Notes under the pieces: model-generated
The model's database searches: none
Seen by the model: the letters and a program-made list of their open reading frames with translations, nothing else
Told to the model about the DNA's origin: nothing
Program-made: the position numbers and the translations under genes
Assembly (NCBI GenBank): GCA_041674925.1
Contig: JBAYUW010000005.1
Location: 1 to 51,432, forward strand
Origin: Minisyncoccota bacterium
GTDB taxonomy: Bacteria; Patescibacteriota; Minisyncoccia; Phycocordibacterales; GWA1-40-21
Length of the DNA stretch: 51,432 nucleotides
Direction of reading: 5' to 3'
Shown: positions 2,291 through 51,096 of the stretch, in pieces
How positions within the stretch are numbered: position 1 is the first letter of the stretch
Layout of the letters: every line of letters begins with the position of its first letter

Positions 2291-2322
2291 TAAAAAAGAC
2301 CCCAACCGTGTGGCTGGGGCTC
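2291..2322 (-). terminator. intrinsic terminator downstream of the HAD gene
   Basis: On the minus strand, GAGCCCCAGCC-ACAC-GGTTGGGGTC is followed by TTTTTT (the A-run at 2292..2297 on the plus strand). Confidence 0.6.
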
Positions 2323-2354
2323 TGGGTGGGTCCTTTGGCCCACATTTTTCTTAT

Positions 2355-2984
2355 TCAGTGTGTAAGGATCGTTGCGAGATCCTGGAGATCGATGATGCAA
2401 TGCCGAGCACCATTTCTTCTCAAGACTTCGTCGGTCCCACATCCTCTTGTGATACCGATCGGGACAACCCCCGCTTTCACTGCGGAGCGCATATCGTCAC
2501 CGAAATCACCCACGTACCAAACGTTTTCAGGAGCGATCGCTTGCTCTTCACAAAACTGAGTCAAAGCCACCGTTTTGTTGAGTGCACCACCCCGAATCAT
2601 TTCGAGGTGACGTTGGAGACCGGCCTGAGCACACCGCCCCTTGACGCGTTCCTCAGTGTTCGCGCTGAGGATACCCATCATCATTGGTTTGAGTTGTGCT
2701 AGCTCCTGAAGTGTCGAGGGTACGTCGTGAAAGAACGGCCACACCTCCGCCTCCATGACATCGTAGTAGAGGCGATTGATCGTTGCCTCATCATGGGTAA
2801 CACCGCGTTGGCGATAGAAATCCATGTATGGGGGCGCGAAATACTCGCAGAACTCTAGAAAACTCGGTGGCCATAACTCTTCCAACTTGTTGGTCCTAAA
2901 AATTCGACAGACACCACGGTAGGCCGGCAAAATGCTAGCCAGCAGAGTGCCGTCGAAATCAAAGAGCAATGCCTTAGGTTTCAT
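2355..2984 (-). CDS. HAD-superfamily hydrolase (phosphoglycolate phosphatase-like)
   Basis: DFDGTLL (motif I), ILSANT (motif II), K in GGALNKT, GDFGDDM (motif IV). SD AGGAGA 8 nt upstream of the ATG. Visibly GC-richer than the flanks. Confidence 0.8.
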   Translation of the reverse strand: MKPKALLFDFDGTLLASILPAYRGVCRIFRTNKLEELWPPSFLEFCEYFAPPYMDFYRQRGVTHDEATINRLYYDVMEAEVWPFFHDVPSTLQELAQLKPMMMGILSANTEERVKGRCAQAGLQRHLEMIRGGALNKTVALTQFCEEQAIAPENVWYVGDFGDDMRSAVKAGVVPIGITRGCGTDEVLRRNGARHCIIDLQDLATILTH

Positions 2985-3111
2985 CTCTTATTTCTCCTGT
3001 TTTTTCATCACGCTGACATTATTCTAGTCCTTATATAAAGTAACAAAAAAAGGCGGTGGTTGTCAATTAATCTGAGTATTTTTCCAGCTTAATTTCTGAT
3101 AAGATTAATTT

Positions 3112-3366
3112 ATGAAAATAATCGTGAAAGTTAAAACCCGTGCCAAAGTCGAAAGTATTGAAAGGGTGGGGCAAGATGGTTTTGCTTTGAAGGGAATTAA
3201 TAATGATTTACCGATTTATAAAATTTCTGTCAAAGAAGCTCCTGTCGCCGGCCGAGCCAATGAAGCCATCATCAAACTCCTCGCCGACTATTTTAAAATT
3301 GCCCCTGCCCGCATTCAGCTGCTATCCGGCCAGACATCGAAGCAAAAGGTGTTTGAGGTGGTATAA
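3112..3366 (+). CDS. DUF167 / YggU-family small protein
   Basis: 84 aa with KVKTRAK...ISVKEAPVAGRANEAIIKLLADYF...QKVFEV, typical of UPF0235/DUF167. TGaTAAGAT box lies 6 nt upstream of the ATG. Confidence 0.7.
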   Translation: MKIIVKVKTRAKVESIERVGQDGFALKGINNDLPIYKISVKEAPVAGRANEAIIKLLADYFKIAPARIQLLSGQTSKQKVFEVV

Positions 3367-3402
3367 AAAAAGAGCCCGCGGGTATCGCTACCGTTGGGCT
3401 CC
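3364..3402 (-). terminator. intrinsic terminator after the 210-aa ORF
   Basis: GAGCCC...GGGCTC stem with inner CGGGTA/TACCG pairing. U-tract on the minus strand (A-run 3365..3371). Confidence 0.5.
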
Positions 3403-3410
3403 AAAGGTCT

Positions 3411-4043
3411 TCAGCTCGGTATAGTCACCGGCTCACCATTTGCCAGAAGAAATGGGTTTTTCGTTTCAGGCAATCCGTCACCGCACCAGCCATAGGTGTT
3501 CGAAAAACACTCGTCACAGACGTGCATGGGATACACTGAACCCCATACGTTCCAGAGAGTGGCCCGTGTCGCTATTGACGGACAACCCTGACGGAAACAT
3601 CGATAAGCTGAGGAAGTTGAAGATACTCCTTTTGGCCAACCAAACAAGATGTGGTATCTGTTTCGAAAGATCCGTTCGGCCAGAGTCTTGATACTCCAGT
3701 TGTCTTGCACAATCAATTCCTCTGGTCTAAAAAATCTGACTCGCGGGCACTGTTGCCATATGGCGTCTTGCAAAAGAAATGACCAATCGCCAGTCGTTAG
3801 ATTCTTTTCGTATTGCGTTTCCCAGTCGGTCACTTCAGATCGAGAAAAGTTGAAACGATCAGCGCTAACCTCTTTTCCGAAAAAGACAGCGACAGTGTAC
3901 CCATCGTCCTCTTTGTCTGAAAAGGGAGCGACAACATAGCCTTCAAAACTACTCCAAGGACCCATCTTATCCTTCATCCCCACAATCGTTCCGGCAATAA
4001 TGGGTCTACCATCAGCCGCGACAACTTGATCAGTCGTATTCAT
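3411..4043 (-). CDS. hypothetical protein with a Cys-rich C-terminus (GC-rich islet)
   Basis: Long ORF. I prefer ATG 4043 (MNTTDQ) over GTG 4049 because AAGGGG lies 6 nt upstream. C-terminal CFRQGC...HVCDECF...WCGDG cysteine cluster. No family recognised. Confidence 0.5.
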   Translation of the reverse strand: MNTTDQVVAADGRPIIAGTIVGMKDKMGPWSSFEGYVVAPFSDKEDDGYTVAVFFGKEVSADRFNFSRSEVTDWETQYEKNLTTGDWSFLLQDAIWQQCPRVRFFRPEELIVQDNWSIKTLAERIFRNRYHILFGWPKGVSSTSSAYRCFRQGCPSIATRATLWNVWGSVYPMHVCDECFSNTYGWCGDGLPETKNPFLLANGEPVTIPS

Positions 4044-4105
4044 GAGCACCCCTTTGTGTTAGAACATCCAATAATTAGTCTACTCCTTTTTATTTTAAAG
4101 GCAAG

Positions 4106-4132
4106 AAAAACCGCTCCCCCGAAGGGAAGCGG
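4106..4132 (-). terminator. intrinsic terminator after the 84-aa ORF
   Basis: On the minus strand, CCGCTTCCC-TTCG-GGGGAGCGG is followed by TTTTT. Confidence 0.65.
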
Positions 4133-4167
4133 TATGGGTGGGTGCACGATTCATGAATGAATGCGGA

Positions 4168-4422
4168 CTAATCTCCTGATGGATTCAAGCCGCCCATCGA
4201 TCTTCGGTACTCCCTTTTTTCATGTTGCCGATTAAGTTGCCTCGCTAGCCTCTGATTTTCAGGCACGTATCCACGACCTTGACGACACTCGACGAGGGTT
4301 TTCTTTTTGCCGCTAAGGAGACTGTTGGCCCGATCGCCCAAATCTTCCTCAACCTCCTCATCAGTAAAATCGTGTTCAGTTTCCTGCCAGCCACAGTGTT
4401 TACAAAGTATACCGTCAGCCAT
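4168..4422 (-). CDS. hypothetical small protein (84 aa, CxxC N-terminus, acidic then basic)
   Basis: Perfect SD AAGGAGGTG 5 nt upstream of ATG 4422. Has its own terminator. MADGILCKHCGW... No family recognised. Confidence 0.5.
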   Translation of the reverse strand: MADGILCKHCGWQETEHDFTDEEVEEDLGDRANSLLSGKKKTLVECRQGRGYVPENQRLARQLNRQHEKREYRRSMGGLNPSGD

Positions 4423-4484
4423 CTCACACCTCCTTGTATTGAGAATCTAATATTAATATTACTCTCTTTAATAAAAAGAACAAG

Positions 4485-4509
4485 AAAAACAGCGACTCGT
4501 GAGTCGCTG
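4485..4509 (-). terminator. intrinsic terminator / possible attenuator between the structured element and the 84-aa ORF
   Basis: On the minus strand, CAGCGACT-CACG-AGTCGCTG is followed by TTTTT (A-run 4485..4489 on the plus strand). Confidence 0.65.
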
Positions 4510-4518
4510 GGCGCCTCC

Positions 4519-4641
4519 GGAAGGTGGGAGACGGTGTGCACACAATAGAGGGTGCCTCCATTATGAGGATCAACCTGAGGACTGATCCATCACGGAAGCC
4601 ATGTCTTGACTCGCGCGGTCATCCTCTCGTCCCCACCTTCC
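4519..4641 (-). ncRNA. candidate structured RNA (unclassified ncRNA or riboswitch-like leader)
   Basis: GGAAGGTGGGAGACG (4519..4533) pairs with CGTCCCCACCTTCC (4628..4641), giving 14 bp with one bulge. The stem encloses local hairpins GTGTGCACAC, GAGG-GTG-CCTC and GGATCA-N10-TGATCC. A minus-strand terminator follows at 4485..4509. GC-rich in an AT-rich context. Strand assignment is from the terminator polarity only. Confidence 0.3.
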
Positions 4642-4702
4642 TTCGGCGAAGTCTTAATGGTAGCATAGTCGATTTAACTTTGTCAAAAGTACATCAAAAC
4701 CG

Positions 4703-4736
4703 CGAACGGCTCAACATAAAATAGCTGAGCCGTTCG
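4703..4736. repeat. hairpin CGAACGGCTCA-N12-TGAGCCGTTCG (probable tRNA-Glu terminator; shares arms with the repeats at 31072 and 38880)
   Basis: 11-bp perfect stem. On the minus strand it is followed by GGTTTTG. The AACGGCTCA arm is shared with the island-flanking repeats. Confidence 0.5.
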
Positions 4737-4748
4737 TAAATTTTACAG

Positions 4749-4823
4749 TGGTGACCCTACCGGGGATCGAACCCGGGTTCACAGATTGAAAACCTGTTGT
4801 CCTAACCACTAGACGATAGGGCC
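4749..4823 (-). tRNA. tRNA-Glu (anticodon UUC), CCA encoded
   Basis: The reverse complement GGCCCTATCGTCTAGTGGTTAGGACAACAGGTTTTCAATCTGTGAACCCGGGTTCGATCCCCGGTAGGGTCACCA folds as a cloverleaf. Anticodon loop is TTTTCAA. Confidence 0.93.
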
Positions 4824-4911
4824 GAAAAGAACCTTGCTCAATATAACATTTTTTGTAAAAAAAGCAAAATACTATAATTATACTTTTAAAAAGTGTAGAC
4901 AGGTTGATTAA

Positions 4912-5709
4912 ATGCTACACGAAAGATATAATACTTATATGAAGAAAAATATAAACAAAAAAGTGTTAGCCGGTAGTTTGGGTGGATTAGCTAGGTTCAG
5001 AAAACATGGTAATTTTGGCACTCCCGAGGGTAGGAGACTCGGTGGTCTAAGATCATTAAAAACTCATAAATTAAAACCATCTGGTTTTATTCAGCTGAAG
5101 AAAATTATAATACCGAGGAGAAGCTCAAATCTGGCGGAATTGTTGGGAATTTTAATCGGTGACGGTCACCTAAGTCGTTATCAGGTTTTATTCACTACCA
5201 ACTCAGATACTGACAGCGAGCATGCTCAATATGTGAGTCTTTTATTTAACAAACTATTTTCTATTAACACTTTAATTAAAAAGAGAAAAAATAAAAAAGC
5301 CGTAGATATTATCGTTTCGTCTGCAAACTTAGTTAGATATTTAAACAAGCTTGGTATGCCGATCGGTAATAAATTAACTATTGGTCTTAAAGTACCTTTG
5401 TGGATAAAGAGAAATCGTTCATTTTCCAGAGCTTTTATTCGTGGTCTTTTTGATACAGACGGTTGTGTATTTATTGATACCCATAAGTACAAAGATCGGA
5501 CATATAGATATCTTGGCTGGACTTTTACTAGCTATGATGATAAATTTCTTAATGAGATCAAGGAGTTGTTGGTAAATTTTGGATTTAATCCAACCCTTAC
5601 CTCAAAACAAAGGTCAGTGTATTTAAGGAAACAGTCGGAGATAAAGGAATATTTTGATCTTATAGGTACAAGTAATTTAAAACACAAGAGTAGATTTTTA
5701 AGAATTTGA
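4912..5709 (+). CDS. free-standing LAGLIDADG-family homing endonuclease-like protein
   Basis: Two LAGLIDADG-type motifs: LLGILIGDGHL and FIRGLFDTDGCVF. Sits between tRNA-Glu and tRNA-Ser and not inside any recognisable intron or intein. Confidence 0.8.
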   Translation: MLHERYNTYMKKNINKKVLAGSLGGLARFRKHGNFGTPEGRRLGGLRSLKTHKLKPSGFIQLKKIIIPRRSSNLAELLGILIGDGHLSRYQVLFTTNSDTDSEHAQYVSLLFNKLFSINTLIKKRKNKKAVDIIVSSANLVRYLNKLGMPIGNKLTIGLKVPLWIKRNRSFSRAFIRGLFDTDGCVFIDTHKYKDRTYRYLGWTFTSYDDKFLNEIKELLVNFGFNPTLTSKQRSVYLRKQSEIKEYFDLIGTSNLKHKSRFLRI

Positions 5710-5712
5710 CAG

Positions 5713-5799
5713 GGAGAGATGTCGGAGTGGTCTAACGAGCCAGTTTCGAAAACTGGTAGGGGTGAAAGCCTCTCGAGGGTTCGAATCCCTCTCTCTCCG
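5713..5799 (+). tRNA. tRNA-Ser (anticodon CGA), long variable arm, no encoded CCA
   Basis: GGAGAGA acceptor stem pairing with TCTCTCC, anticodon stem-loop CCAGT-TTCGAAA-ACTGG, long extra arm, GGTTCGAATCC T-loop. Confidence 0.93.
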
Positions 5800-7359: not shown

Positions 7360-7432
7360 TGGGCGGTAAGGGATTCGAACCCCTGACATCGTCAACGTCA
7401 ATGACGCGCTCTACCAACTGAGCTAACCGCCC
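7360..7432 (-). tRNA. tRNA-Val (anticodon GAC)
   Basis: The reverse complement GGGCGGTTAGCTCAGTTGGTAGAGCGCGTCATTGACGTTGACGATGTCAGGGGTTCGAATCCCTTACCGCCCA folds as a cloverleaf. Anticodon loop is TTGACGT. Confidence 0.93.
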
Positions 7433-7457
7433 GTGAACTGAATCTTACACTATTTTA

Positions 7458-8384
7458 TTATTTTTTCAACCATCGATAAATATCCTCCAAGGCTTTGATG
7501 GCATCGCCGACGGCGATATTGTTTTGCTGATAGAGGCCGTCGGTGCAATCACCAGCGGACCAAATACCTGACAGGGAAGTACGTTGGGTTTTGTGGTCGA
7601 TTTTGATATTGCCTTCGGGGGTGGTTTCGACTAAATCTTTGGCAAAAGAGGTGGATGGAATATGGCCGATTTCGACAAAAATACCCTCTATGGCTAATTC
7701 TGTTTGTTCGTTAGTCTCGAGATTTTTAACAACTAAAGATTTTACAAAATTATCGCCCTTCACCTCTACAGGTATAGTATTTTTTAGGATTTTCAGTTTA
7801 GGATTCTCTGACGCTTTCTGGACCGTGATTGGATCGGCGCGGAATTCATTTCGTCTGTTTATTAAAGTGACTGATTTGCAATAATCGAAAAGCTGAATCG
7901 CGCTTTCAAAAGCGGAATTTCCTCCACCAATAACTACCACATTTTTATCACCAAAAAGAGGCGCATCGCAGGTGGCGCAATAGACTATCCCTTTACCCTC
8001 ATATTTATCGGCTCCGACAATATTTAGTTTTTTTCTCTGACTGCCGGTGGTAATCAGGACCGCCTTGGCCGAATAAGAATTTTTGGCTGTTTTGATTTCA
8101 AAATTGTCCTCCTTTTTGGAAACAGCAGTGACTTTTTCTTTGGTCTTAATTGTGACGGAGTCGCCGGCGTAAGCACGCAAATGAGCCTCGAGTTTCTTGG
8201 TTAAATCATTACCGGAAATAGCACTTTCGCCTATCCAATTTTGAATTTCCAGTGACACGGTACTTTGACTTTCAAAAGTATCGGTCAGAAAAATAGTTTT
8301 GATTTTTTTACGCGCAGCATAAACACCAGCGGCTACACCTGCCGGCCCACCACCAATAATTGCTAGATCAAAAGTTTCAGGCAT
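7458..8384 (-). CDS. trxB: thioredoxin-disulfide reductase
   Basis: GGGPAG FAD-binding motif, redox-active CATCDA, GGGNSA NADPH-binding motif, GDC near the C-terminus. Confidence 0.85.
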   Translation of the reverse strand: MPETFDLAIIGGGPAGVAAGVYAARKKIKTIFLTDTFESQSTVSLEIQNWIGESAISGNDLTKKLEAHLRAYAGDSVTIKTKEKVTAVSKKEDNFEIKTAKNSYSAKAVLITTGSQRKKLNIVGADKYEGKGIVYCATCDAPLFGDKNVVVIGGGNSAFESAIQLFDYCKSVTLINRRNEFRADPITVQKASENPKLKILKNTIPVEVKGDNFVKSLVVKNLETNEQTELAIEGIFVEIGHIPSTSFAKDLVETTPEGNIKIDHKTQRTSLSGIWSAGDCTDGLYQQNNIAVGDAIKALEDIYRWLKK

Positions 8385-18574: not shown

Positions 18575-18638
18575 TTGACTTCATATTTTTATTGAGTAGT
18601 ATTAATTTCAGAAACACAAACCAGAAAGGGTGGTGTGT

Positions 18639-18965: not shown

Positions 18966-18982
18966 ACATTGAGTCATCGAAA

Positions 18983-19017
18983 AACCGCGGACCCCTTTGG
19001 GATCGCGGTTCTTTTTT
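18983..19017. terminator. bidirectional intrinsic terminator
   Basis: AACCGCG...CGCGGTT stem with inner CCC/GGG pairing, flanked by an A-run (18979..18984) and a T-run (19012..19017). Sits between convergent genes. Confidence 0.7.
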
Positions 19018-19026
19018 ATACTCTTT

Positions 19027-30818: not shown

Positions 30819-30829
30819 AAATCCATAAT

Positions 30830-32977: not shown

Positions 32978-32981
32978 GGTT

Positions 32982-35236: not shown

Positions 35237-35239
35237 TTT

Positions 35240-35947: not shown

Positions 35948-35948
35948 G

Positions 35949-38555: not shown

Positions 38556-38569
38556 TATTTAAAACACCC

Positions 38570-38869: not shown

Positions 38870-38879
38870 GGCTTAATCG

Positions 38880-38915
38880 GGAACGGCTCAACCCAAAGGT
38901 CCGTTGAGCCGTTCC
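38880..38915. repeat. right copy of the hairpin direct repeat flanking the R-M island
   Basis: GGAACGGCTCAAC-ccaaaggtcc-GTTGAGCCGTTCC. The core matches 31074..31105 at 31 of 32 positions. Confidence 0.85.
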
Positions 38916-38925
38916 TAAAATATCT

Positions 38926-41900: not shown

Positions 41901-42150
41901 TGTCCACTCCGCCTTGTTTATCATTTCGCGTGCGAGCCGCGACATACATATCGGCGCCGATGATCGGCTTGATCTCATTTTTTTTGCATGTTTTGTAAAA
42001 CTCAATCGCGCCGTATAAATTGGCATTGTCAGTTAAAGCCAAAGCCGGCATGCCATTTTTCTTGGCTTCTTTTATCAAGTCATCAATTTTTGGTAGGGCA
42101 TTAAGCAGGGAATAATGCGAGTGGGTATGTAGATGCACAAATTTTGACAT
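38926..42150 (-). CDS. dnaE: DNA polymerase III alpha subunit
   Basis: PHP domain FVHLHTHSHYSLL, polymerase core (GLLKFDFLGI, FNKAHAASY), OB fold at the C-terminus. Start taken at ATG 42150 (MSKFVHLH); the TTG-extended ORF to 42246 runs through a terminator hairpin. Confidence 0.95.
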   Translation of the reverse strand: MSKFVHLHTHSHYSLLNALPKIDDLIKEAKKNGMPALALTDNANLYGAIEFYKTCKKNEIKPIIGADMYVAARTRNDKQGGVDNRRSRLILLARDLDGYKNLIKLVTFANLEGFYYKPRIDKELIEKHKFGLICISPSFSGATSQALKNGDVAEAKRLVAWYKEVYGEKNFFLELTHHPEIEGHEELMKKVIALGKETNTPLVAAHDVYYLHQEDKKARDTLLLVNTNSDFSDRNSDSNEEDFSFITSEKAEELFRDTPEALENTLKIAEMCELELELGSWVFPDFKVISGLTPDEELKRLAYEGFAKRNLEQTKEYVDRLEYELKVIKDKGYSPYFLVVADLLRFAHENKILTNIRGSVAGSLTTYLTKITNVDPIDYKLPFERFLNPERPSAPDIDMDYADNRRDEVIEYAKKKYGADKVAQIGTFGTMMARGSVKDVARAMGYPYTLGDRISKLIPMGAQGFPMTIDRALKETKELQEMYNKEADVKIIIDMAKKIEGCARHISVHAAGVVMAPRPLTDFTPLQFDTKGEEKIITQYDMHAIEDAGLLKFDFLGIKNLAILSNAVALAKKIEGQEIDIENIPINDQKTFDLLARGETTGLFQLNGQGMTKYLKDLKPSTIHDINAMVALYRPGPIESIPEYIKRKHNSRTIRFLDPRMKDILSQSFGVITYQDDVMLIAIHLAGYSWLEADKLRKAMGKKIPKEMEAQKEKLKEGLIKKGMSQEKADELWALIEPFAAYGFNKAHAASYGRVAYQTAYMKANFPAIYMACVLTADAGDVEKIAEFIGDCKRMNIPVLPPNVNESFQDFTVVTTSPLTPLLKQGEGEKNDTIRFGLTTIKNFGEGIANTIIEERKKNGKFKDLSNFLTRIKDKNLNKKSLEALIKVGALDEFGERGVMMANVENMLTYSREAGQQSENQDSLFGAYVPGLNTDVNNFKLQDAPPATATEKLNWERELLGLYLSGHPLDKFRKIIEEKNYKISQVKTDPKEGKECVVAGMIEDIRAIVTKKGDNMAFLKLSDFNDTLETVVFPRTMTEFKNILVKDKAVAVKGKISLRNGEVSLIVDKVKELG
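39667..39705. repeat. palindromic repeat element inserted in frame in dnaE
   Basis: CCCCTCTCCTT-gttt-AAGGAGAGGGG followed by ...GGGTGAGGT. It encodes TTSPLTPLLKQGEGEK inside the DnaE sequence FQDFTVV...IRFGLTTIKNFG. Confidence 0.8.
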
Positions 42151-42202
42151 AAAAGCATTATAACTTTTTTTAGATAAATCCCAAACATTGACAAAATTAT
42201 AG

Positions 42203-42230
42203 CCCGGCGAGTCGTTGTTGACTCGCCGGG
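42203..42230 (-). terminator. hairpin terminator after the 127-aa ORF
   Basis: CCCGGCGAGTC-N6-GACTCGCCGGG, a perfect 11-bp stem. The minus-strand downstream tract CTATAATTTT is only a weak U-run. Confidence 0.5.
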
Positions 42231-42249
42231 CCGCAGGCCACGCCAAGTG

Positions 42250-42633
42250 TTAGAACTTGTCTACGTGGAATGCCCCGCCTCGGTAAGGCTTACACCAGAC
42301 TGAGGGGCGTCCGACACGACGGTGAAGAGACTTGAAGTGGCGCTCAAACTGACGTCTGATATCGTCGATCAAAGCCTCCTGAACCTCGACAGATGGGTCA
42401 AAGATACCCTTGCCATACTCGTCGGTCCCTGCGGTGTATCGGATCTCAATCTGGATTTGCGCTTCGCCTTTCGTCCGCGCGGCGTGTATGACAGTCGTCG
42501 CAATGTCTTGCTCTTCAACGATGTCAAATCGTTTCGAGACACACAGTCCCACCCTTTCGAGAAAGGCGTCGATTTCCAACTCGGTGCATTCTCTCTGGGC
42601 TTCTTTGCCAATAATGGCATATACTTGTGGCAT
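42250..42633 (-). CDS. hypothetical protein (GC-rich islet), possibly tautomerase-superfamily-like
   Basis: SD AGGAGG 6 nt upstream of the ATG. N-terminal MPQVYAIIGKEAQ... (Met-Pro followed by a beta strand) and a second IQIEIRYTAG segment are reminiscent of tandem beta-alpha-beta tautomerase units. This is a weak visual impression only. Confidence 0.45.
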   Translation of the reverse strand: MPQVYAIIGKEAQRECTELEIDAFLERVGLCVSKRFDIVEEQDIATTVIHAARTKGEAQIQIEIRYTAGTDEYGKGIFDPSVEVQEALIDDIRRQFERHFKSLHRRVGRPSVWCKPYRGGAFHVDKF

Positions 42634-42795
42634 CGTAACCTCCTGTTTGTTGTTCTGACACTGTATTTCGAGATACTAAATCTGTTACCAGTATACACCC
42701 ATATACATATTTTGTCAAGGTTTAATGTATATTACATTTTATCCACAACCGACCAGTCGCTTTTCTTCATCATTCTATGCTAGGATACCGCCGCG

Positions 42796-43236
42796 ATGAT
42801 AAAAGATTTTGATAAATGGAACGAGAAGAAGAAAAGTATTCATTGGACTAACCAACCCACAATTTTTCATGAACGAGAAATTTGGTGGTGTGCCCTTGGA
42901 GTCAATATTGGATTTGAGGAAGATGGCAAGAACGAAAATTTTGAAAGACCTGTTTTAATAATCAAAAAGTTTAATAGACACGTTGCCTGGATTATACCCT
43001 TAACGACTCAAAAACATAATGATGTTTTTCATTATCAACTTAAAACCAGTAAAACTTTTATCATCTTATCGCAACAAACATCGATCAGTTCAAAGAGATT
43101 AGTGCGTTTTATTGAGAAAATTTCCGAAGATGAAATTCTATTCATTTTTGAACTACTAAAAAGTTTTTATACTTTGAAACACATTTCTACAAAAAGCGAT
43201 TCCCGCCCTTTTGGGGCGGGATCTCCGTTGGCCTAA
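42796..43236 (+). CDS. PemK/MazF-family toxin-like protein, no adjacent antitoxin recognised
   Basis: REIWWCALGVNIGFEEDGKNENFERPVLIIKKF...WIIPLTTQ matches the MazF/PemK core (G.E..G..RP.L.I...PLT). Confidence 0.6.
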   Translation: MIKDFDKWNEKKKSIHWTNQPTIFHEREIWWCALGVNIGFEEDGKNENFERPVLIIKKFNRHVAWIIPLTTQKHNDVFHYQLKTSKTFIILSQQTSISSKRLVRFIEKISEDEILFIFELLKSFYTLKHISTKSDSRPFGAGSPLA

Positions 43237-43332
43237 CGGCCATTTATGAATCAAGTATATATCAATCAACACAAAAGTCAAAGCGATAAAAGTGGATAAC
43301 TTTAATACAAAAATTAAGCTATAATACCAACC

Positions 43333-45021
43333 ATGACACAATCTGAGGCTTTAGATATTTTAAAACTTGGACACAATGTTTTTTTGACTGGACCGGCGGG
43401 GAGCGGTAAGACTTTTGTGTTGAATGAATATATTAAATTTTTACGCGAGAATTTGGTGGATGTGGGGATTACCGCGAGCACGGGAATCGCCGCCACGCAT
43501 ATGAACGGCACGACGATTCACTCTTGGACGGGGATGGGTATCAAGGATGTTTTGACTAAAGCAGATTTGGCCGAATTAAAAACCCGCCGATATTTAAAAG
43601 ATCGTTTTGCTCGGACGCAGGTCTTGGTCATTGATGAAGTTTCGATGCTTCATCATTATCGTCTGGATTTGATCGACGAGGTTTGTCGATATATGAAAGA
43701 TAGTGACGAACCGTTTGGTGGCTTGCAAATTATTTTATGTGGTGACTTCTTTCAATTACCCCCTGTCGCACGCTTTGGTGAACCGACCGCTTTGTTTGCT
43801 TATGAAAGTGAGATCTGGCAGAAAGCTAATTTAAAGATTTGTTATTTAGAAGAACAACATCGTCAAACTGATTTAGCTTTTTTGAAAGTCTTAAACGAGA
43901 TTCGAAAAAATAATTTGTCTGATGATGGGCTCAAGCATTTGATGTCTCGACACGTTAAAAATAGAAAGAAAGAAGAAGTCCTAATCGAGCCGACACTGCT
44001 GCACACTCACAATATTGATGTGGATACTATCAATCAAAAGGAATTAGAAAGATTAACTGGTCAGCAGCGAGAGTTTGAAATGGAAAGTCGAGGGAGGCAA
44101 CCACTGGTGGACCTCTTGAAAAAAAGTTGCTTGGCGCCAGCAACTTTGAAGTTAAAGGTTGGAGCCAAAGTGATGTTTGTGAAAAATAATTTTGAAGAAG
44201 GCTATGTGAATGGCACTTTAGGCATAATAGTTGGCTTTGACCATGAGGGACCGATTGTGCAAACGGTGCGAGGTAAAAATATACATGTTAAACCAGCCAA
44301 TTGGATGATTGAAGAAGAGGGTAAAATGAAGGCAAGTATCGGCCAATATCCTCTGCGTCTAGCTTGGGCGATTACCGTCCATAAAAGTCAGGGTATGAGT
44401 CTCGACGCTATTGAAGTCGATTTGTCCAAATCGTTTGAAAAAGGTATGGGCTATGTCGCTCTATCTCGCGTACGGTCTCTGGATGGTTTGCACCTGATTG
44501 GTTTAAATGACACTGCCGTCAAAGTTCGTGATGAAGTATTGGTATTTGATGAGAGTTTAAAAAAGGTTTCTAACAAGCATTTAGCCGAAATGCTGAGTCT
44601 GACCAATGAAGAAAAAAAGCAAAAGCAAAAAGAATTTTTACAAAAAATTTCTCCGGCCAGGACGGCTAGCGGTAAAATTAAGAAAATAAGAATTTCACCA
44701 ACCGAAGAGACTAGAAAAATGCTGGAGGCGGGAATGAGTCTTAATGAGATGGCGAATTTGCGTGGAGTAAAAACCGAAACCATTTTGGATCACATTGAGA
44801 AATTATTGGCTGATGATCCTCGTCTTGATTTTAGACATTTAGAAAACGAAATTTCAGTGGCAAAGTTTAAAAAAATCTATCGCGCTTTCAATGATATTTA
44901 CGGCGATAATCGGGAATTGCGTTTGGCGCCCGTGATGAAAGTCTTAGGGGGAGAAAAATCTGGCCTATCCTTTCCTGAACTTCGTCTTGTCCGTCTATTT
45001 CTGAAAAAAAGAGGAATGTAA
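43333..45021 (+). CDS. Pif1/RecD-family SF1B DNA helicase with a C-terminal HTH-like domain
   Basis: GPAGSGKTF (Walker A), LVIDEVSM (Walker B), CGDFFQLPPV, QHRQTD..FLKVLNEIR (Pif1 signature region), TVHKSQGMSLD. Confidence 0.85.
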   Translation: MTQSEALDILKLGHNVFLTGPAGSGKTFVLNEYIKFLRENLVDVGITASTGIAATHMNGTTIHSWTGMGIKDVLTKADLAELKTRRYLKDRFARTQVLVIDEVSMLHHYRLDLIDEVCRYMKDSDEPFGGLQIILCGDFFQLPPVARFGEPTALFAYESEIWQKANLKICYLEEQHRQTDLAFLKVLNEIRKNNLSDDGLKHLMSRHVKNRKKEEVLIEPTLLHTHNIDVDTINQKELERLTGQQREFEMESRGRQPLVDLLKKSCLAPATLKLKVGAKVMFVKNNFEEGYVNGTLGIIVGFDHEGPIVQTVRGKNIHVKPANWMIEEEGKMKASIGQYPLRLAWAITVHKSQGMSLDAIEVDLSKSFEKGMGYVALSRVRSLDGLHLIGLNDTAVKVRDEVLVFDESLKKVSNKHLAEMLSLTNEEKKQKQKEFLQKISPARTASGKIKKIRISPTEETRKMLEAGMSLNEMANLRGVKTETILDHIEKLLADDPRLDFRHLENEISVAKFKKIYRAFNDIYGDNRELRLAPVMKVLGGEKSGLSFPELRLVRLFLKKRGM

Positions 45022-45108
45022 AACCAGTTTGACACAAAGCTAATTTACTGTATGATATTCTTGGGTAGTTCTTCGACGTTTGCGTGTCGGTTAACAATAA
45101 GGAGACTC

Positions 45109-45621
45109 ATGAAAGCATTCATGAAGCGTGGGAGTTTGTTCATAACACTTGTCTACGTGGCGGTTTGTACCATTGGTGGTAGCCGATTGCCAAAAGGTTT
45201 CTTTAGACTTTACGAATTTTTGGGAGTGGGTATGAGCATGCTCACTTGCCAAATTCTGGTCGCTCTGACGATTTGGATACTTTTTGGCGCCTGGGCGGTT
45301 TATTCGATGACGACACCACCAAAGTGGCTCTGGGGTGTAAGGGCAAACTTCAAGAGAATTGTGTTCTGGACCTGCTTCTATCTCAGTCTACCGATTTTGC
45401 TGAGATGGGTCAATCTTCAGGGAACACAGCGGTCGGCAATGGTGGTAATTCCACTCGTCGCCTTGGTCTATTGGGTGATGCGTTCACTTCACCCGAGCAA
45501 TATCGAGTGGGGTAACGACGACGATCATCTAAGCGCCGTTCAGCAAGTGGATTGTAGGCTCGGTGTCATTGAAGATGGACGAGATGATGAACTTGAGGGT
45601 GCTGGGCGAGATCGGGTCTGA
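45109..45621 (+). CDS. hypothetical four-TM membrane protein (GC-rich islet)
   Basis: Start taken at ATG 45109, preceded by AAGGAGA. Four hydrophobic helices and an acidic C-terminal tail. Confidence 0.45.
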   Translation: MKAFMKRGSLFITLVYVAVCTIGGSRLPKGFFRLYEFLGVGMSMLTCQILVALTIWILFGAWAVYSMTTPPKWLWGVRANFKRIVFWTCFYLSLPILLRWVNLQGTQRSAMVVIPLVALVYWVMRSLHPSNIEWGNDDDHLSAVQQVDCRLGVIEDGRDDELEGAGRDRV

Positions 45622-45633
45622 GAGGAGGCGACT

Positions 45634-45891
45634 ATGTTCCAGGCTGTTCGAGATGTTTGGGGTATGATTCGAGAACGAATATCGGCCGTAGAAGATCGGT
45701 CTTCTGATGACGAAACACTCGTCGTTGGACAGCGGTCACGAACGCTCGGTGTCGAGATGCTCGAAGAAGATGGGTCCGGGAATCATTGGCGTGAACTTGA
45801 CGAACTGGACTTCAAACACCGAGAAAGTCCGACCGCCCGCCTGTTTCATCCGAAAGTGAAGCGGGTGTGTGATGATTCGAGTTTGATGTGA
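45634..45891 (+). CDS. hypothetical acidic small protein (GC-rich islet)
   Basis: SD GAGGAGG 5 nt upstream of the ATG. Lies 12 nt after the preceding ORF and is followed by the hairpin at 45910..45946. Confidence 0.45.
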   Translation: MFQAVRDVWGMIRERISAVEDRSSDDETLVVGQRSRTLGVEMLEEDGSGNHWRELDELDFKHRESPTARLFHPKVKRVCDDSSLM

Positions 45892-45909
45892 ACGCATTGC
45901 TGCTGAGTG

Positions 45910-45946
45910 GAGGGTATCATGGGATACCCTCGCTCGACGGTTTTTT
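45910..45946 (+). terminator. putative terminator of the two-gene GC-rich cassette
   Basis: GAGGGTATC-atgg-GATACCCTC stem. The T6 run starts 9 nt downstream, which is a non-canonical spacing. Confidence 0.4.
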
Positions 45947-47060: not shown

Positions 47061-47095
47061 CGGTCAAGGCGGTTTTCCTGTAGGATGCCGCCGTC

Positions 47096-49672
47096 ATGAA
47101 AAAAATATTTTATCGACTGGGTCTGACTTTCTTTTTATTATTAATTTTCTTCTCTGTTTCCTCTTCCTCGCGTGTTGAAGCAATCATGTTTGTGCCATAT
47201 TTGGACGTGCACATTATCACCAAAACTATCGGTGGCGATGCGACTTTCAATTATTCTTTTGGTGTGTACACACCGCCCAGTCCTGCCCCAGATATTCACG
47301 AAGATTTTTCTCTAACAACTGCCAGCGGTACGGCTAGTTATTTTATTCCCAGCGATTCTGGCCCTTCAAATCGAGCGATAATTAGTCAGGATTTATTATC
47401 AGATTGGGAGCTATCAATTTTTTGCACGAGTGACAATGAAGAGGTGACTTTTGAGTATAAATCAGATTATGTCTCGATGGTCGTGCACCCTTTCACAACT
47501 ATCACCTGTACTTTCACCAATACCAAAAAACAGCGAACGCCGGTGATTATAATTCCCGGCATTTTATCAAGTCATCTGAATCGCAATGATAATGAAAAAA
47601 CGGAACTATGGCCCAGTCTCGGTCAAGCTTTATTCGGCTGGCCCGGGGATAAATATTTAGAAGAGCTCAGCCTCGACGAAATCGGGCAACCAAATTTATC
47701 TTACCCCGTCGTCTTGCCAACTGATATTATTCGTAAAATTCGAAACAAAGATTTCTTTGATGGTTTCATTAAAAAATTAATCAGTGAAGGTTATGAAGAA
47801 GATAGAGATTTGTTTATTTTTCCTTATGACTGGCGTCTGGATATTCGGGATTCGGTAGACAGTATTTATTCACCGATTTTGATTTCTTTGAAAGATAAAA
47901 TTACTCAGATTCAAACTCAAACCGGTCAATCGAAAGTCGATATTGTCGCTCATAGTATGGGTGGTTTGCTTTCAAAATATTATATTAAGAATTACGGCAC
48001 GGGTAGGATAGATAAATTTATTGATATAGGTACGCCACACTTGGGTGCGCCGAGTGCTCTAAAAACTTTAATGTTTGGTGATGATCTGGGTATCAAGTTT
48101 GGTTGGTTTGGTTTAAATCCTGAACGAGTGAAAAGTATTTCGCAAAATATGCCATCTGCGTATCAACTTTTGCCTAGCGAAAATTATTTTTCCACCAGCT
48201 CACCGGATTATAAATATTATTTGTTTGATATGGATGATGTGGATAAAGACGGAGTACGTGGGCGTTTGGATTTTGCTCAAACAAATCAATTTTTAAAAAA
48301 CACTGGCCGTAATGAATTTCTCTTAGATCGAGCACCAAATATTCACAATGATTTAGATTTTGTTAACCCCGCTGATTATGGGGTGAAAGCCTACAATATC
48401 GTTGGTTGTGGTGTACCGACGATTGGTAAGTTTTTCTCACTTGGTCAAAAGTATAATGGTCAGTATTATGATGTGGCTTATATCTCTGGTGACGGCACCG
48501 TGCCGGAAAAAAGCGCGCGGGGTTTTCCTTCGATTGAAGAATATCAAGTCACTGGCGTGAATCACAGTGGCCTGACAAGTGCTGAAGGGGTGGGGTCTTT
48601 GATTTCCTCATTGCTATTAGATAAAGTCTCAGAATTTGATTTTGTCACTTATGAATATATTTCGACGAGCACTCCTTTATGCAATGTCCCTGATGGCGAT
48701 TTAATTAGTTTTCATGGACCAGTAGAATTACCAGGGGATTTCGGACAAAATATTCCAGACTTGGCTTATGATTATATTCCCAATAATATTTTTATCTTTC
48801 TTCCTCTATCAGTCACCGATCAGGCAGAAATAAAAGTGACGGCCAAGAAAAAAGGCAAGGCCAGCTCGCATATTAAAAAGTTTCGTAATGGGGAAGTTAC
48901 TCAGACAATATATTACGATGATCTTCCACTCGATTCAGCCAGTTCAACGGTTGAAATCAAGTTTGAAGACGATGAACCGATTGTGATTGATGATTCAATT
49001 ATTGTTCCAACACCACCAACTATCGAGGGTGATTCTCTTGATGATTTAGAACCACCACTGACCACCATTCATATTGATCAACCAACGCCGACTTCAACTG
49101 CCGCTATTACTTTTACAACTGAAGATGATGATACTCTGGTGACTGAATATTCGATTGATGGGGGAGAGACATTTATTGTCGCCAGCTCAAGCCTTCCCAT
49201 CATTATTTCTAATATCGGCACGACGACTATTATTTATCATTCAACCGACACATCAGGAAATATTGAAAACATACAACAGGTTGAAATAGTGATTCTACCA
49301 TCGCCACCAGCGCCAGTGCCAGAAATTATCGCTCCCATCGTCGAAGAGTCCAAATTGACTCATGGATCAATAAGAAAGAAAAAAGAAAAAGAAACTGAAA
49401 CTATAACCGAAGTTGAAGCGGAAATAAAAAAGGCGACAGAAATTGCTGCGGTTTTTTTACCGAATCCAATAATAGATAAAATTGATGATGTCAGCGTCGA
49501 ACCCATGAATACTGTAATTACCGATCCAATCATACCTTATTACGCTTATACTTTGAATTCTGGTCTTGATTTCAAGAATTTTCTCTGGTTGTTCTTGTTA
49601 ATCTTAATTCTAATTTTATGTCTATTATTACTCGGTCGAAGTTTCTTGAAAAATGATAGAATAAAGAGATGA
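47096..49672 (+). CDS. secreted, C-terminally anchored alpha/beta-hydrolase (LCAT/PGAP1-like lipase/acyltransferase)
   Basis: Signal peptide, PGILSS, the FPYDWRLD motif typical of the LCAT family, nucleophile elbow AHSMGG. Long Ig-like/low-complexity C-terminal region and a terminal TM helix. Confidence 0.65.
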   Translation: MKKIFYRLGLTFFLLLIFFSVSSSSRVEAIMFVPYLDVHIITKTIGGDATFNYSFGVYTPPSPAPDIHEDFSLTTASGTASYFIPSDSGPSNRAIISQDLLSDWELSIFCTSDNEEVTFEYKSDYVSMVVHPFTTITCTFTNTKKQRTPVIIIPGILSSHLNRNDNEKTELWPSLGQALFGWPGDKYLEELSLDEIGQPNLSYPVVLPTDIIRKIRNKDFFDGFIKKLISEGYEEDRDLFIFPYDWRLDIRDSVDSIYSPILISLKDKITQIQTQTGQSKVDIVAHSMGGLLSKYYIKNYGTGRIDKFIDIGTPHLGAPSALKTLMFGDDLGIKFGWFGLNPERVKSISQNMPSAYQLLPSENYFSTSSPDYKYYLFDMDDVDKDGVRGRLDFAQTNQFLKNTGRNEFLLDRAPNIHNDLDFVNPADYGVKAYNIVGCGVPTIGKFFSLGQKYNGQYYDVAYISGDGTVPEKSARGFPSIEEYQVTGVNHSGLTSAEGVGSLISSLLLDKVSEFDFVTYEYISTSTPLCNVPDGDLISFHGPVELPGDFGQNIPDLAYDYIPNNIFIFLPLSVTDQAEIKVTAKKKGKASSHIKKFRNGEVTQTIYYDDLPLDSASSTVEIKFEDDEPIVIDDSIIVPTPPTIEGDSLDDLEPPLTTIHIDQPTPTSTAAITFTTEDDDTLVTEYSIDGGETFIVASSSLPIIISNIGTTTIIYHSTDTSGNIENIQQVEIVILPSPPAPVPEIIAPIVEESKLTHGSIRKKKEKETETITEVEAEIKKATEIAAVFLPNPIIDKIDDVSVEPMNTVITDPIIPYYAYTLNSGLDFKNFLWLFLLILILILCLLLLGRSFLKNDRIKR

Positions 49673-49797
49673 AGAAGAAAGACAAGATTTTAATGGTCAC
49701 TGTGATTGTTTTGCTTATTTTAATTGTAACTATTTTTTTAAGTCGTGAGGCAATCTTGGATTATATGGTAAACACCATGGACATACGTTTTTTTTAA
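49669..49797 (+). CDS. possible 42-aa single-TM peptide
   Basis: The ATG overlaps the upstream stop (ATGA). MKKKDKILMVTVIVLLILIVTIFL... Too short for the ORF track. Weak evidence. Confidence 0.2.
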   Translation: MKKKDKILMVTVIVLLILIVTIFLSREAILDYMVNTMDIRFF

Positions 49798-49895
49798 ACT
49801 TGCCAAAATTTTAATTAAATGGTAGTATTTTTGTGGAACCGGAACCGACCGGTCAGAGGAGAAACGGTACACAGTACAAAGTAGAGGAGGAGTCA

Positions 49896-50099
49896 ATGGC
49901 CCGAAAAAGTAGGATTGTGGGTTTTTTCATTCACGAGGTGAATTCCGGTTGTTTTGAGGAGGAACTTCCTGCGGAAACACGAACTGCGATTCGGCAGGTA
50001 ACTTGTCCGCAGATGACGCAACGGATCGAGTGTTTCATTAAGCGTCTCGATCGGAAGTGTGGATGTAAGCAGACCAAGAAACCGAAGGGCAAGAAGTAG
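49896..50099 (+). CDS. hypothetical small Cys-containing basic protein (GC-rich islet)
   Basis: SD GAGGAGGAG 5 nt upstream of ATG 49896 (MARKSRIV). Terminator at 50130..50162. Confidence 0.4.
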   Translation: MARKSRIVGFFIHEVNSGCFEEELPAETRTAIRQVTCPQMTQRIECFIKRLDRKCGCKQTKKPKGKK

Positions 50100-50129
50100 A
50101 GGTCGCTCTGATTCCAGAGAGTGAACCGA

Positions 50130-50162
50130 GGGGGCGGGGTTAACCATACCGCTCCCTTTTTT
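50130..50162 (+). terminator. intrinsic terminator
   Basis: GGGGGCGG...CCGCTCCC stem (8 bp including one G-U pair) followed by TTTTTT. Confidence 0.65.
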
Positions 50163-50255
50163 ATTTCCTAAAATTGACTTTGAATAATTTAGGTCTATGA
50201 TTGTCTATGGATCTGAACATTAGTGAACCTTGAAAAACCCGAAAGAGGTAATTCT

Positions 50256-51023
50256 ATGAGCGTGACTAAAACCGATCTGGAGCCGAAGTCGGCTGACTTC
50301 GAAGCTCGGAAAGAATACGATCGTCAGAACATGATCGCACCTTGGCCAGAGCAGTTCAAAAAAATGGGGGCGATTTGGAGACATGACGGAAACCACTTAA
50401 AACCGCACGTGAAGTTTTCGGCGAACGGAAATCACGGGGGAAGTTATTTCAACTCTCGGATGGTGACAAAAAACGCCACCATTCTGAATCATGCGGCCAC
50501 TGAACTGGTTGGCAAGCTTCGATTCAACCACTACGATCCCAGGAACAGAATTGGTCTAGACGATGTCGATTTGGTGGTCGGCCCGGCGATGGGGGCTTGT
50601 TCTCTGGTTGTCTGTGTTGCTCTTAACATCACTCATTGGTGTGGACGAGAAGATGTTGAGATGGTTCATGTAAACATTGGTCAATATCAAGCTGGCCGTA
50701 AGTCTGTGATCTTTGATCACCCAGCAATTCAGCCAGGAAAACGAGTCCTGATCGTCGATGACGGTCTGACGACGGGTGGCACGACTCGGCTTATAGCCAA
50801 GGCAATTGAGCGGGCTGGTGGGATTGTTCTACCTGTAATGCTCGTCATGATAAACAGTTGTGGTGAAGACGTCTTGGACGGTCGAAGCATCATCAGTCTG
50901 GTAAAAGAGGAACTGCCAACTTGGGCACCAGTGGAGTGTCCACTGTGTGCGGCTGGCTCAGAAGCTCTCCTTCTTTCAGCGCAAGAAGCTGGAAACTGGG
51001 CGTTGCTGACCTCTCAGCCTTGA
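50256..51023 (+). CDS. type I phosphoribosyltransferase-domain protein (OPRT-like) with a C-terminal CPLC motif
   Basis: PRPP-binding loop VLIVDDGLTTGGTTR. Start taken at ATG 50256, preceded by AAGAGG. GC-rich. Confidence 0.65.
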   Translation: MSVTKTDLEPKSADFEARKEYDRQNMIAPWPEQFKKMGAIWRHDGNHLKPHVKFSANGNHGGSYFNSRMVTKNATILNHAATELVGKLRFNHYDPRNRIGLDDVDLVVGPAMGACSLVVCVALNITHWCGREDVEMVHVNIGQYQAGRKSVIFDHPAIQPGKRVLIVDDGLTTGGTTRLIAKAIERAGGIVLPVMLVMINSCGEDVLDGRSIISLVKEELPTWAPVECPLCAAGSEALLLSAQEAGNWALLTSQP

Positions 51024-51034
51024 TGGCGAGGGCG

Positions 51035-51076
51035 AATCCCCGTGGGGGTGCATAGGCACCTTCGCGGGATTTTTTT
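51035..51076 (+). terminator. intrinsic terminator after the PRTase-like gene
   Basis: Compound GC-rich hairpin (AATCCC.G...CGGGATT enclosing GGTGC-atag-GCACC) followed by T7. Confidence 0.6.
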
Positions 51077-51096
51077 ATGAAAGGAAAAAATAGACA

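Follow-up and report, generated by a model that had tools for sequence, protein, structure and literature searches.

Introduction

Why would the AT-rich chromosome of a bacterium of the candidate phyla radiation (CPR) be interrupted by short GC-rich genes, each framed by expression signals of its own and preceded by a Shine-Dalgarno (SD) site that the genes around it lack? This question is raised by a contig of a Minisyncoccota bacterium (JBAYUW010000005.1, assembly GCA_041674925.1), of which positions 1 to 51,432 were analysed and are called the window. A preliminary description, made from the sequence of the window alone, had listed nine such stretches, here termed islets. We read the islets as accessory, horizontally exchanged mini-cassettes of a Paceibacteria chromosome, moron-like in build and coming from a mainly Patescibacterial pool, and give this reading a rough probability of 0.68.

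The window has a GC content of 0.393 over 51.4 kb. It is part of a CPR/Paceibacteria chromosome, because core genes are present (DnaE polymerase III alpha, TsaD, FtsZ/FtsA, peptidase M29 and a Cu-ATPase) and the nearest loci are Paceibacteria/Parcubacteria metagenome-assembled genomes (MAGs). It also encodes tRNA-Glu, tRNA-Ser and tRNA-Val. A scan of the genome collection with DnaE returned 76 loci. Almost all come from MAGs of Patescibacteria, which bear the names Paceibacterota, Parcubacteria or, used loosely, Saccharibacteria. The nearest locus in that collection, L003, has a DnaE identity of 83%, and the metagenome contig L077 is nearer still, at 86%.

Composition of the islets

Three classes of open reading frame (ORF) were compared: 11 islet ORFs from the nine listed stretches, 34 backbone ORFs, and a five-gene block at 31154-38555. 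The islet ORFs were found to have a GC content of 0.47-0.57 and a third-position GC content (GC3) of 0.46-0.59, against 0.32-0.45 and 0.26-0.45 for the backbone ORFs; the five-gene block lies at GC 0.28-0.34. Islet and backbone GC show zero overlap (Mann-Whitney p=4e-7), a separation that is partly circular because the islets had been picked by GC. TTA makes up 3% of leucine codons in the islets versus 31% in the backbone, AAC 61% versus 21% of asparagine codons, and CGG 21% versus 4% of arginine codons, and the islet proteins are enriched in Arg, Cys and Trp and depleted in Lys, Ile and Asn. The dinucleotide signature distance (delta*) between the islets, which occupy about 11% of the window sequence, and the backbone is 96, whereas size-matched backbone samples gave 34 +/- 11 and, over 500 draws, never more than 68. 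The short stretches had been described as GC-richer than their neighbours, with GC3 and codon usage proposed as the check; the non-overlapping ranges and the codon and dinucleotide shifts bear this out, the islet ORFs differing strongly from the backbone. GC content, codon usage and dinucleotide signature would mark the cassettes as incompletely ameliorated imports. Translational selection was considered as the source of the high GC3 and rejected: CGG, AAG and GAG also rise, and the ribosomal-protein genes of relatives are not GC3-rich.

Expression signals of islets and backbone

An SD site was scored where the duplex with CACCUCCU reached -6 kcal/mol or lower. Such a duplex lies upstream of nine of the 11 islet ORFs and of two of the 39 other ORFs (Fisher p=1e-6), and the islet count rises to 10/11 when the pipeline-called start at 45109 (AAGGAGA) is used. 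The ORF at 38570 is the sole islet ORF without an SD, so the earlier count of ten SD-led ORFs with that one exception holds. ORF starts were corrected to 4043, 18639, 45109, 49896 and 50256; the first four agree with gene calls, and the last is our own reading of an SD-led ATG. The anti-SD was sought through a 16S 3' end in all 118 sequences of the analysis, and none was found.

Pairs of TTGACA-like and TATAAT-like boxes, read or scanned, lie 35-60 nt upstream of the ATG in nine units, the best promoters being those at 42718-42690 and 45029-45056, each with 11 of 12 consensus positions. Ranked by strength, the top 11 terminator-like hairpins of the window include eight that are inside islets (2320-2299, 2326-2343, 4133-4110, 4509-4490, 4736-4703, 29299-29332, 42232-42201 and 51039-51068). 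The preliminary description had nearly all islets capped by a terminator of their own; most are, with the qualification that the hairpin of a DUF167 gene is shared with the 210-aa cassette. As read from sequence, one gene stands between its own putative promoter and a factor-independent terminator.

The backbone genes are built differently. A TANNNT box ends 3-13 nt upstream of the start in 19 of 34 backbone ORFs. Backbone genes carry no SD; either they directly abut the preceding gene or a TATAAT or TAGGAT box stands shortly upstream of the ATG, usually a TATAAT-like one at a distance of 3-9 nt. For dnaE, for example, position 42150 is the true ATG, and a TATAAT box lies 6 nt upstream of it. 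The position of the promoter boxes suggests that backbone transcripts are mostly leaderless. Core genes that do have a leader, such as csp, likewise lack an SD.

Gain, loss and exchange among relatives

Relatives do not keep the islets at the same places. Window segment 49790-51156, which holds two cassettes, corresponds to 83 bp in the sister locus L003. In the slots at 45020-45942, 42148-43332 and 28954-38925, L003 contains different ORFs with a GC content of 0.55-0.59, and no similarity was detectable between these and the window ORFs; at the slot of the 80-aa cassette, too, its GC-rich ORFs are unrelated. The slot near 45 kb holds a 152-aa gene in L003 and a 306-aa gene in L077, both unrelated to the window's content. 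The L077 gene (GC 0.50, SD-led) is placed between a PIF1-like helicase gene and a DUF2914 gene.

Contigs of relatives from the same metagenome, aligned at 80% likeness or more, leave out four of the islets nearly to the boundary. The HAD cassette is missing from one contig (depth 11.3), in which 23 other letters connect 2239 with 3075, and another joins 42144 to 42737 (depth 9.6) and lacks the cassette upstream of dnaE. A variant contig joins 18571 to 19077, so that exactly the 108-aa unit is gone, with a depth of 4.4 and four bases common at the joint; the depth of this islet is 11.4, compared with 25-64 in its left flank. A further variant joins 45096 to 45890, losing both ORFs and keeping the promoter, leader and terminator, at a depth of 8.46 versus 8.4 for the cassette. 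At the phosphoribosyltransferase (PRTase) cassette, the contigs of relatives diverge at 51085. The islets reach only the depth of this genome (8-14), whereas most core flanks reach 25-160, two- to ten-fold more, to which relatives contribute. Repeated acquisition of single-gene units, as first proposed, agrees with the gain, loss and swaps seen in L003, L077 and the metagenome relatives. Repeated gain and loss of such units is supported because the composition and synteny checks, either of which could have overturned it, both failed to do so.

Soundness of the assembly

Could the islets be an artefact, that is, chimeric assembly, binning contamination, or non-coding GC-rich DNA with chance ORFs? 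Many related populations are present in the metagenome, and in GC-rich DNA the ORFs of the two strands overlap. Most islet/backbone junctions are nevertheless crossed by unitigs with zero mismatches and an even depth of 11-14, and both junctions are crossed for the HAD, 18.6-kb, 29-kb and dnaE-upstream units and for the units at 49.8-51.1 kb (for example by exact unitigs at 2192-3121 for the HAD, 28603-30149 for the 80-aa, 47076-50235 for the 67-aa and 50206-51386 for the PRTase cassette). At the 45-kb slot an exact unitig crosses the left junction only, the right junction lying on a unitig of depth about 2, and none of the exact unitigs compared crosses 3121-3144 or 4537-4840. The check for misassembly that had been proposed is thus passed at most junctions, with the right edge of the 45-kb cassette thinly covered.

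A second public assembly, L117 (78.9 kb), reproduces the left islets exactly. From position 1 to about 7450 of the window the identity is 100%, and past tRNA-Val (window 7432-7458) it falls to about 80%, a break that reflects either a strain switch in one assembly or a recently shared 7.4-kb segment; if the former, strain-switch chimeras do occur here. An artefact is also hard to reconcile with properly placed SD, ATG and terminator, with coding-type GC across codon positions, and with two families of conserved homologues whose models have a predicted local distance difference test score (pLDDT) above 92, and we consider it very improbable.

The same design in other Paceibacteria

The best-followed case is the 127-aa ORF at 42250-42633, named MPQ after the first three residues of its product. 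Its cassette recurs in other AT-rich Patescibacteria-type contigs (L077-L082), beside different core genes. Three distinct contexts in five loci (L077-L081) were read in detail: the gene was found next to S9/L13 and GrpE/DnaK, next to SmpB and a kinase, and, in L077 as in the window, upstream of dnaE. In these five loci the GC content of the gene is 0.08-0.15 above that of the locus. A putative promoter, TTGACA-N17-(TG)TATAAT, a CA-rich leader of 40-75 nt and a GC-rich hairpin accompany it. Over L077-L082, which represent three other AT-rich lineages, the cassette consists of TTGACA-N17-TGTATAAT, a CA-rich leader, AAGGAG, the gene and a GC-rich terminator. AAGGGAG directly precedes the ATG-CCN-CAR start in L077 and L079/L080; in L081 the pipeline start was mis-called, and the true start lies further in.

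Across 25 metagenome loci, all copies were found to begin ATG/GTG CCN CAR and to be preceded by an SD. Gene GC exceeds flank GC in 24 of the 25 and follows it (r=0.87). The SD cores are kept at a fixed distance although the leaders diverge, which argues, indirectly, that the SD is functional in the hosts of MPQ-type cassettes. The MPQ homologues whose context was read lie on Patescibacteria-like or unassigned contigs. A GC-richer, SD-using donor had been suggested at the outset; the idea of one donor is over-simplified, because the GC of the MPQ gene tracks its host and its contexts are Patescibacteria-like or unassigned. In three Paceibacterota contigs (L114-L116) the 210-aa family is likewise SD-led and GC-richer than its surroundings: its GC3 exceeds that of the backbone by 0.11 to 0.15, and it has AAAGGAG-like sites among housekeeping genes that lack an SD and have abutting promoters.

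A clade-wide test pooled 115 pipeline-called genes from six Paceibacteria loci, with the query genes left out. The 15 SD-led genes have higher GC3 (p=3e-4) and are shorter, their downstream hairpins have a median of -21 kcal/mol versus -9.6 kcal/mol for the rest (p=5e-6), and 13 of the 15 have no Pfam domain. In a crude ORF-based count, SD use is 0-25% in all dnaE-linked Paceibacteria of any GC and 30-55% in some contigs with an MPQ gene of 'native' GC, which is suggestive of higher SD use where MPQ has native GC. The density of cassettes had at first seemed unusual; the roughly 11% of the window matches relatives (8 of 18 genes in L077 are cassette-like) and the published range for the phylum.

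That SD, terminator, GC3 and small protein co-occur in six other loci means that 'a distinct expression class', offered from the start as an alternative to acquisition, is true as a description. Taken as an explanation, and as such the chief rival to acquisition, it would make the islets a native ancestral class, long-resident genes kept GC-richer and SD-led by selection or GC-biased gene conversion at recombination hot spots, with patchiness due to differential loss; selection might act through control of translation by the SD, through mRNA stability, or through a regulon for stress or host contact. The recurrence of the syndrome in other lineages, the retention of the SD cores in all 25 MPQ homologues despite diverging leaders, the synteny of MPQ in the window and L077, the similar GC3 offset of the 210-aa family in four lineages, and the lack of an SD even in leadered core genes such as csp, which makes SD use class-specific, would all follow from it. 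We nonetheless find it unlikely: four of the 11 islet ORFs match only themselves among 1.84 billion protein representatives, one slot holds three unrelated genes in three related genomes, the dinucleotide signature is foreign beyond GC, the rise of CGG, AAG and GAG is what a compositional shift, not translational selection, typically produces, and GC3 is not raised in the ribosomal-protein genes of L079.

How would the cassettes move?

In the reading as exchanged cassettes, each islet would be a self-sufficient unit consisting of 1) a near-consensus sigma-70 promoter, 2) a C/A-rich leader of 35-60 nt, 3) an SD 3-8 nt before the ATG, 4) one small ORF, or in one case two, and 5) a strong intrinsic terminator. 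Each unit fits exactly into the gap that runs from a core gene's stop codon to the promoter or stop of the following core gene. The same intergenic slots, located 3' of core transcription units, would take up a cassette, lose it or exchange it for another. Slot replacement may proceed by homologous recombination in the conserved flanks after DNA uptake; illegitimate recombination may also contribute, as suggested by the 4-bp joint at 18571/19077. The SD, promoter and terminator would travel with the gene as portable expression signals. The gene pool would be exchanged mainly among higher-GC Patescibacteria, and its largely intra-phylum nature is suggested because whole cassettes recur in other Patescibacteria. 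The anatomy of the units, their compositional contrast, their variable presence among relatives and the recurrence of the design in other genomes are observed; that the units are transcribed and translated, how they recombine, and from where and in which direction they move are what we infer here from sequence.

Several points weigh against this reading. A repeat search in the window revealed neither an att site nor a repeat family common to the cassettes, no integrase, transposase or other mobility gene was found near them among the ORFs scanned against Pfam, and no donor genome emerged. That MPQ has one and the same pair of core neighbours in L077 as in the window, at 45% identity versus 76-86% for those neighbours, fits ancestry with fast divergence. 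In four lineages the 210-aa family has a consistent GC3 excess (about 0.1 to 0.15), for which a systematic force, for instance selection or biased gene conversion, could be responsible instead of transfer timing. For the membrane proteins of the 45-kb slot in the window and L003, hhalign gave a probability of 23%, a weak hint of remote homology. The ends of the skip joints are approximate, coming from short unitigs aligned at 80% or more, the comparison genomes are all MAGs or metagenome contigs, and the single run with matching sequence is DNA from a landfill metagenome, with no RNA run among the matches. The cassette at 42250-42633, syntenic with a relative, may be older. No repeat of the tRNA-Glu end was seen at the 2.3-4.7 kb cluster, which adjoins tRNA-Glu.

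Individual cassettes

A full HMMER scan of 1.84 billion protein representatives recovered the islet ORFs as called genes. Families were found for four islet proteins (210, 84, 127 and 170 aa), and self-matches only for the ORFs at 18639-18965, 29038-29280, 45634-45891 and 49896-50099.

The HAD-hydrolase cassette (2240-3074, minus strand) consists of a promoter-like sequence at 3046-3018, the SD AGGAGA (-7.1 kcal/mol), the ORF at 2355-2984 (GC 0.52, GC3 0.57), and hairpins at 2343-2326 and 2320-2299. The ORF matches Pfam HAD_2 at 7e-18 (65.8 bits versus a cutoff of 23.8). The 210-aa cassette (3390-4104, minus strand) has the putative promoter TTGCCT-16-TAGACT at 4104-4077, the SD AAAGGGG and the ORF at 3411-4043, and its hairpin is common to the convergent DUF167 gene (3112-3366). 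The latter gene, inside the second listed stretch, is backbone-like. The 210-aa family has about 60 representatives, with 10 closer homologues, one of them named Candidatus Paceibacterota. Its AlphaFold2 (AF2) model has a pLDDT of 93.7, and several cysteines are conserved; searching the model against the PDB gave no significant fold match beyond a weak SH3-like N-terminal barrel.

Next on the same strand is the cassette of the 84-aa CxxC protein (4110-4483), with the putative promoter TTGTTC-16-TAATAT at 4483-4456, the SD AAGGAGGTG (-13.8 kcal/mol), the ORF at 4168-4422, which the pipeline calls as the same gene, and a terminator at 4133-4110. Homologues of about 80 aa share about 50% identity with this protein. 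A GC-rich non-coding unit (4486-4686, minus strand), situated between tRNA-Glu and the 84-aa cassette, comprises a putative promoter at 4686-4657, a predicted structured RNA of about 145 nt (minimum free energy -82.3 kcal/mol, z=-6.3 versus shuffles) and a terminator at 4509-4490. Rfam gave zero matches at E<=1 for the structured element at 4486-4652, and no copy of the 4486-4686 element was found in any comparison locus fetched.

The 108-aa ORFan cassette (18572-19076, plus strand) contains the putative promoter TTGACT-16-TAGTAT at 18575-18602, the SD AAGGGTGG, the ORF at 18639-18965 and a terminator at about 18984-19016. The 80-aa ORFan cassette (28955-29340, plus strand) has a promoter-like TTGAAG-17-TAGGAT at 28964-28992, the SD GGAGGAG and the ORF at 29038-29280; the GC content of this ORF is 0.57, with GC1/GC2/GC3 of 0.72/0.42/0.58, and its terminator (29299-29332) has 15 pairs.

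The MPQ cassette (42151-42736, minus strand) was found to have the putative promoter TTGACA-17-TATACT at 42718-42690, a CA-rich leader of 46 nt, the SD AGGAGG, the ORF at 42250-42633 and a terminator at 42232-42201, followed by the leaderless-type dnaE (ATG 42150). The ORF has no match in Pfam. Its AF2 model (pLDDT 92.3) has the order E-H-H-E-E-H-E, with two beta-alpha-beta units, and Foldseek matched it to CHMI, MIF and fused 4-OT (E about 3e-5 and below) and to cis-CaaD, among 63 matches at E<=0.001. At least 90% of 30 homologues begin with M1-P2-Q3, and Pro2 is nearly invariant. The product is a predicted member of the tautomerase superfamily, in which removal of the initiator methionine would expose an N-terminal Pro-1.

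The two-gene cassette (45022-45945, plus strand) has the putative promoter TTGACA-16-TATGAT at 45029-45056, ORF1 at 45109-45621 behind the SD AAGGAGA, ORF2 at 45634-45891 behind the SD GAGGAGG, and a terminator at about 45910-45945. ORF1, as called by the pipeline, encodes a 170-aa multi-pass membrane protein with homologues P0032, P0057 and P0060. ORF2 (as 45567-45891) has the motif TLGVEMLEEDGSGNHWRELD. In P0032 this motif belongs to the C-terminal tail of the membrane protein itself, which hints that the membrane-protein gene was split or partly duplicated here.

Two cassettes adjoin near the right end of the window, both on the plus strand. The 67-aa Cys-rich ORFan cassette (49791-50165) has the putative promoter TTGCCA-17-TAGTAT at 49800-49828, the SD GAGGAGGAG, the ORF at 49896-50099 and a terminator at about 50130-50162. 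The PRTase-domain cassette (50166-51090) has the putative promoter TTGACT-16-TATGAT at 50174-50201, the SD AAGAGG, the ORF at 50256-51023 and a terminator at 51039-51068. This ORF matches Pfam Pribosyltran at 7e-8 (32.4 bits versus a cutoff of 26.3); with both domains above the Pfam gathering score, the labels first given to the HAD and PRTase-like ORFs were right. A weak PADLOC match of the PRTase ORF to ShosT (3e-4) was also seen. Outside the window, about 6-6.2 kb left of its start, L117 contains a mild cassette at 18027-18437, with a 136-aa unknown ORF (GC3 0.55), AAGAAAGGAAGA upstream, and a strong terminator common to murJ.

Restriction-modification island and other neighbours

The stretch at 38560-38915 had been listed as a GC-rich cassette, a view that was not upheld. 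The membrane-anchored winged-helix ORF there (38570-38869, plus strand), which has helix-turn-helix (HTH) matches in Pfam and neither an SD nor a promoter of its own, is not independent; it is the last gene of a low-GC restriction-modification island (31106-38881). On both sides of this 7.8-kb island lies a copy of a 32-nt direct repeat (31074-31105 and 38882-38913, 97% identical), AACGGCTCAACCCAAAGGyCCGTTGAGCCGTT, which is itself a perfect terminator hairpin and to which a hairpin at 4703-4736 is related. The island contains genes for an N6/N4 methylase, a D12 methylase and a ResIII helicase-endonuclease, two unknown ORFs and the winged-helix ORF, at a GC content of 0.28-0.34. No integrase was found in 31074-38913. 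L003 has only 3.6 kb at this slot.

Other features of the neighbourhood were observed. The Pfam match of TsaD (1034-2239, 401 aa) falls into three stretches, as if the protein carried an insertion that typical TsaD lacks. Between tRNA-Glu and tRNA-Ser lies a free-standing LAGLIDADG endonuclease ORF (4912-5709, GC 0.33), which is missing from a relative's contig that joins 4869 to 5740. RadC, a Phd/ParE toxin-antitoxin pair and a Zn-ribbon ORF are encoded at 29457-31099, downstream of dnaE. Upstream of dnaE is a solitary MazF/PemK-like toxin gene (42796-43236); a contig of a relative skips it (42803 to 43288), and in L003 it stands on the other side of dnaE. The dnaE of L077 (11121-15620, 1499 aa) contains an intein that has a LAGLIDADG domain; the window dnaE has none.

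Comparison with known systems

The phage 'moron' concept is reportedly that of Hendrix and Juhala. The islets resemble morons in being single extra genes between conserved neighbours, with their own putative promoter and terminator, odd composition and variable presence. They differ in being located among housekeeping genes on a CPR chromosome, not in a phage or prophage, and in having a translation signal that contrasts with that of the host (SD versus leaderless or SD-less). Could they be phage-derived morons all the same, or remnants of prophages or defence islands in the chromosome? Their anatomy is that of the textbook moron, and toxin-antitoxin genes, the restriction-modification island and the weak ShosT match are close at hand. 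Such an origin is improbable, since the window has no phage structural, integrase or replication genes, the MPQ family is missing from 2.9 million viral contigs, and the neighbours of the cassettes are core housekeeping genes (dnaE, tsaD, the PIF1-like helicase gene, csp and tRNAs). Phage origin and defence-system membership were each tried for the islet ORFs and rejected: PHROG gave no match except generic HTH, and PADLOC only generic HTH and the weak PRTase/ShosT match.

Integron cassettes are normally promoterless, end in attC and are arrayed beside intI/attI. Like them, the islets are mobile single-ORF units accumulating in a genome; unlike them, they are scattered and have their own putative promoter and terminator, and neither a common attC-like repeat in the repeat search nor an integrase among the ORFs scanned against Pfam was found. 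The GC-rich cassettes also lack the integrase and flanking repeats of a classical genomic island.

Hundreds of horizontal gene transfer (HGT) events, mostly intra-phylum and covering up to about 13% of genome length, have been detected in Patescibacteria by composition and phylogeny, and restriction-modification systems were found on islands in Paceibacteria (Gios et al., 2025; PMC12455944). With about 11% of its length in GC-rich islets and a 7.8-kb restriction-modification island, the window resembles that picture, and the largely intra-phylum pool suggested here agrees with it. At 0.4-0.9 kb and without integrases, the islets are far below the size of classical islands, and the packaging of promoter, leader, SD and terminator and the contrast with an SD-less core do not appear in the passages of the study that were found. 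Tsurumaki et al. (2022; PMC9297842) detected no CCUCCU anti-SD in the 16S rRNA of about half the Parcubacteria. This fits the SD-less core in the window and in all dnaE-linked relatives; an SD-led minority, or a link of the SD to accessory, GC-richer genes, is not in the passages of that paper that were found. HGT islets and moron-like units are a known kind. The strict coupling of acquisition to a mode of translation initiation foreign to the core, and its recurrence across Paceibacteria, appear to be new with respect to the literature searched.

What the cassettes mean for Paceibacteria

Taken as insulated single-gene units with recurrent packaging and an SD foreign to the core, the islets would offer a clean, sequence-readable signature of HGT in CPR bacteria. 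They also flag two well-folded families, mainly from these bacteria: one Pro-1 tautomerase-like, the other SH3-like and Cys-rich. If the pattern is general, it would provide a simple split of the flexible from the core genome in CPR MAGs, gene finders would need two start models per genome, and how Parcubacteria, which reportedly lose the anti-SD, translate SD-led genes, and whether they regulate them as a class, would become a testable question.

A further and doubtful step is that two translation-initiation regimes coexist in one AT-rich Paceibacteria cell, a leaderless or SD-independent one for the core and an SD-led one for the whole mobile pool of fast turnover, which would travel as standardised modules of consensus promoter, CA-rich leader, SD, ORF and strong terminator. 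If the organism keeps the anti-SD, SD use would be nearly reserved for accessory genes; if it is without one, the cassettes would be silent imports or would be translated by another route. Were this step true, SD dependence would be characteristic of the flexible genome, and might serve as a point of its control, in a lineage of which half the members reportedly have no recognisable anti-SD.

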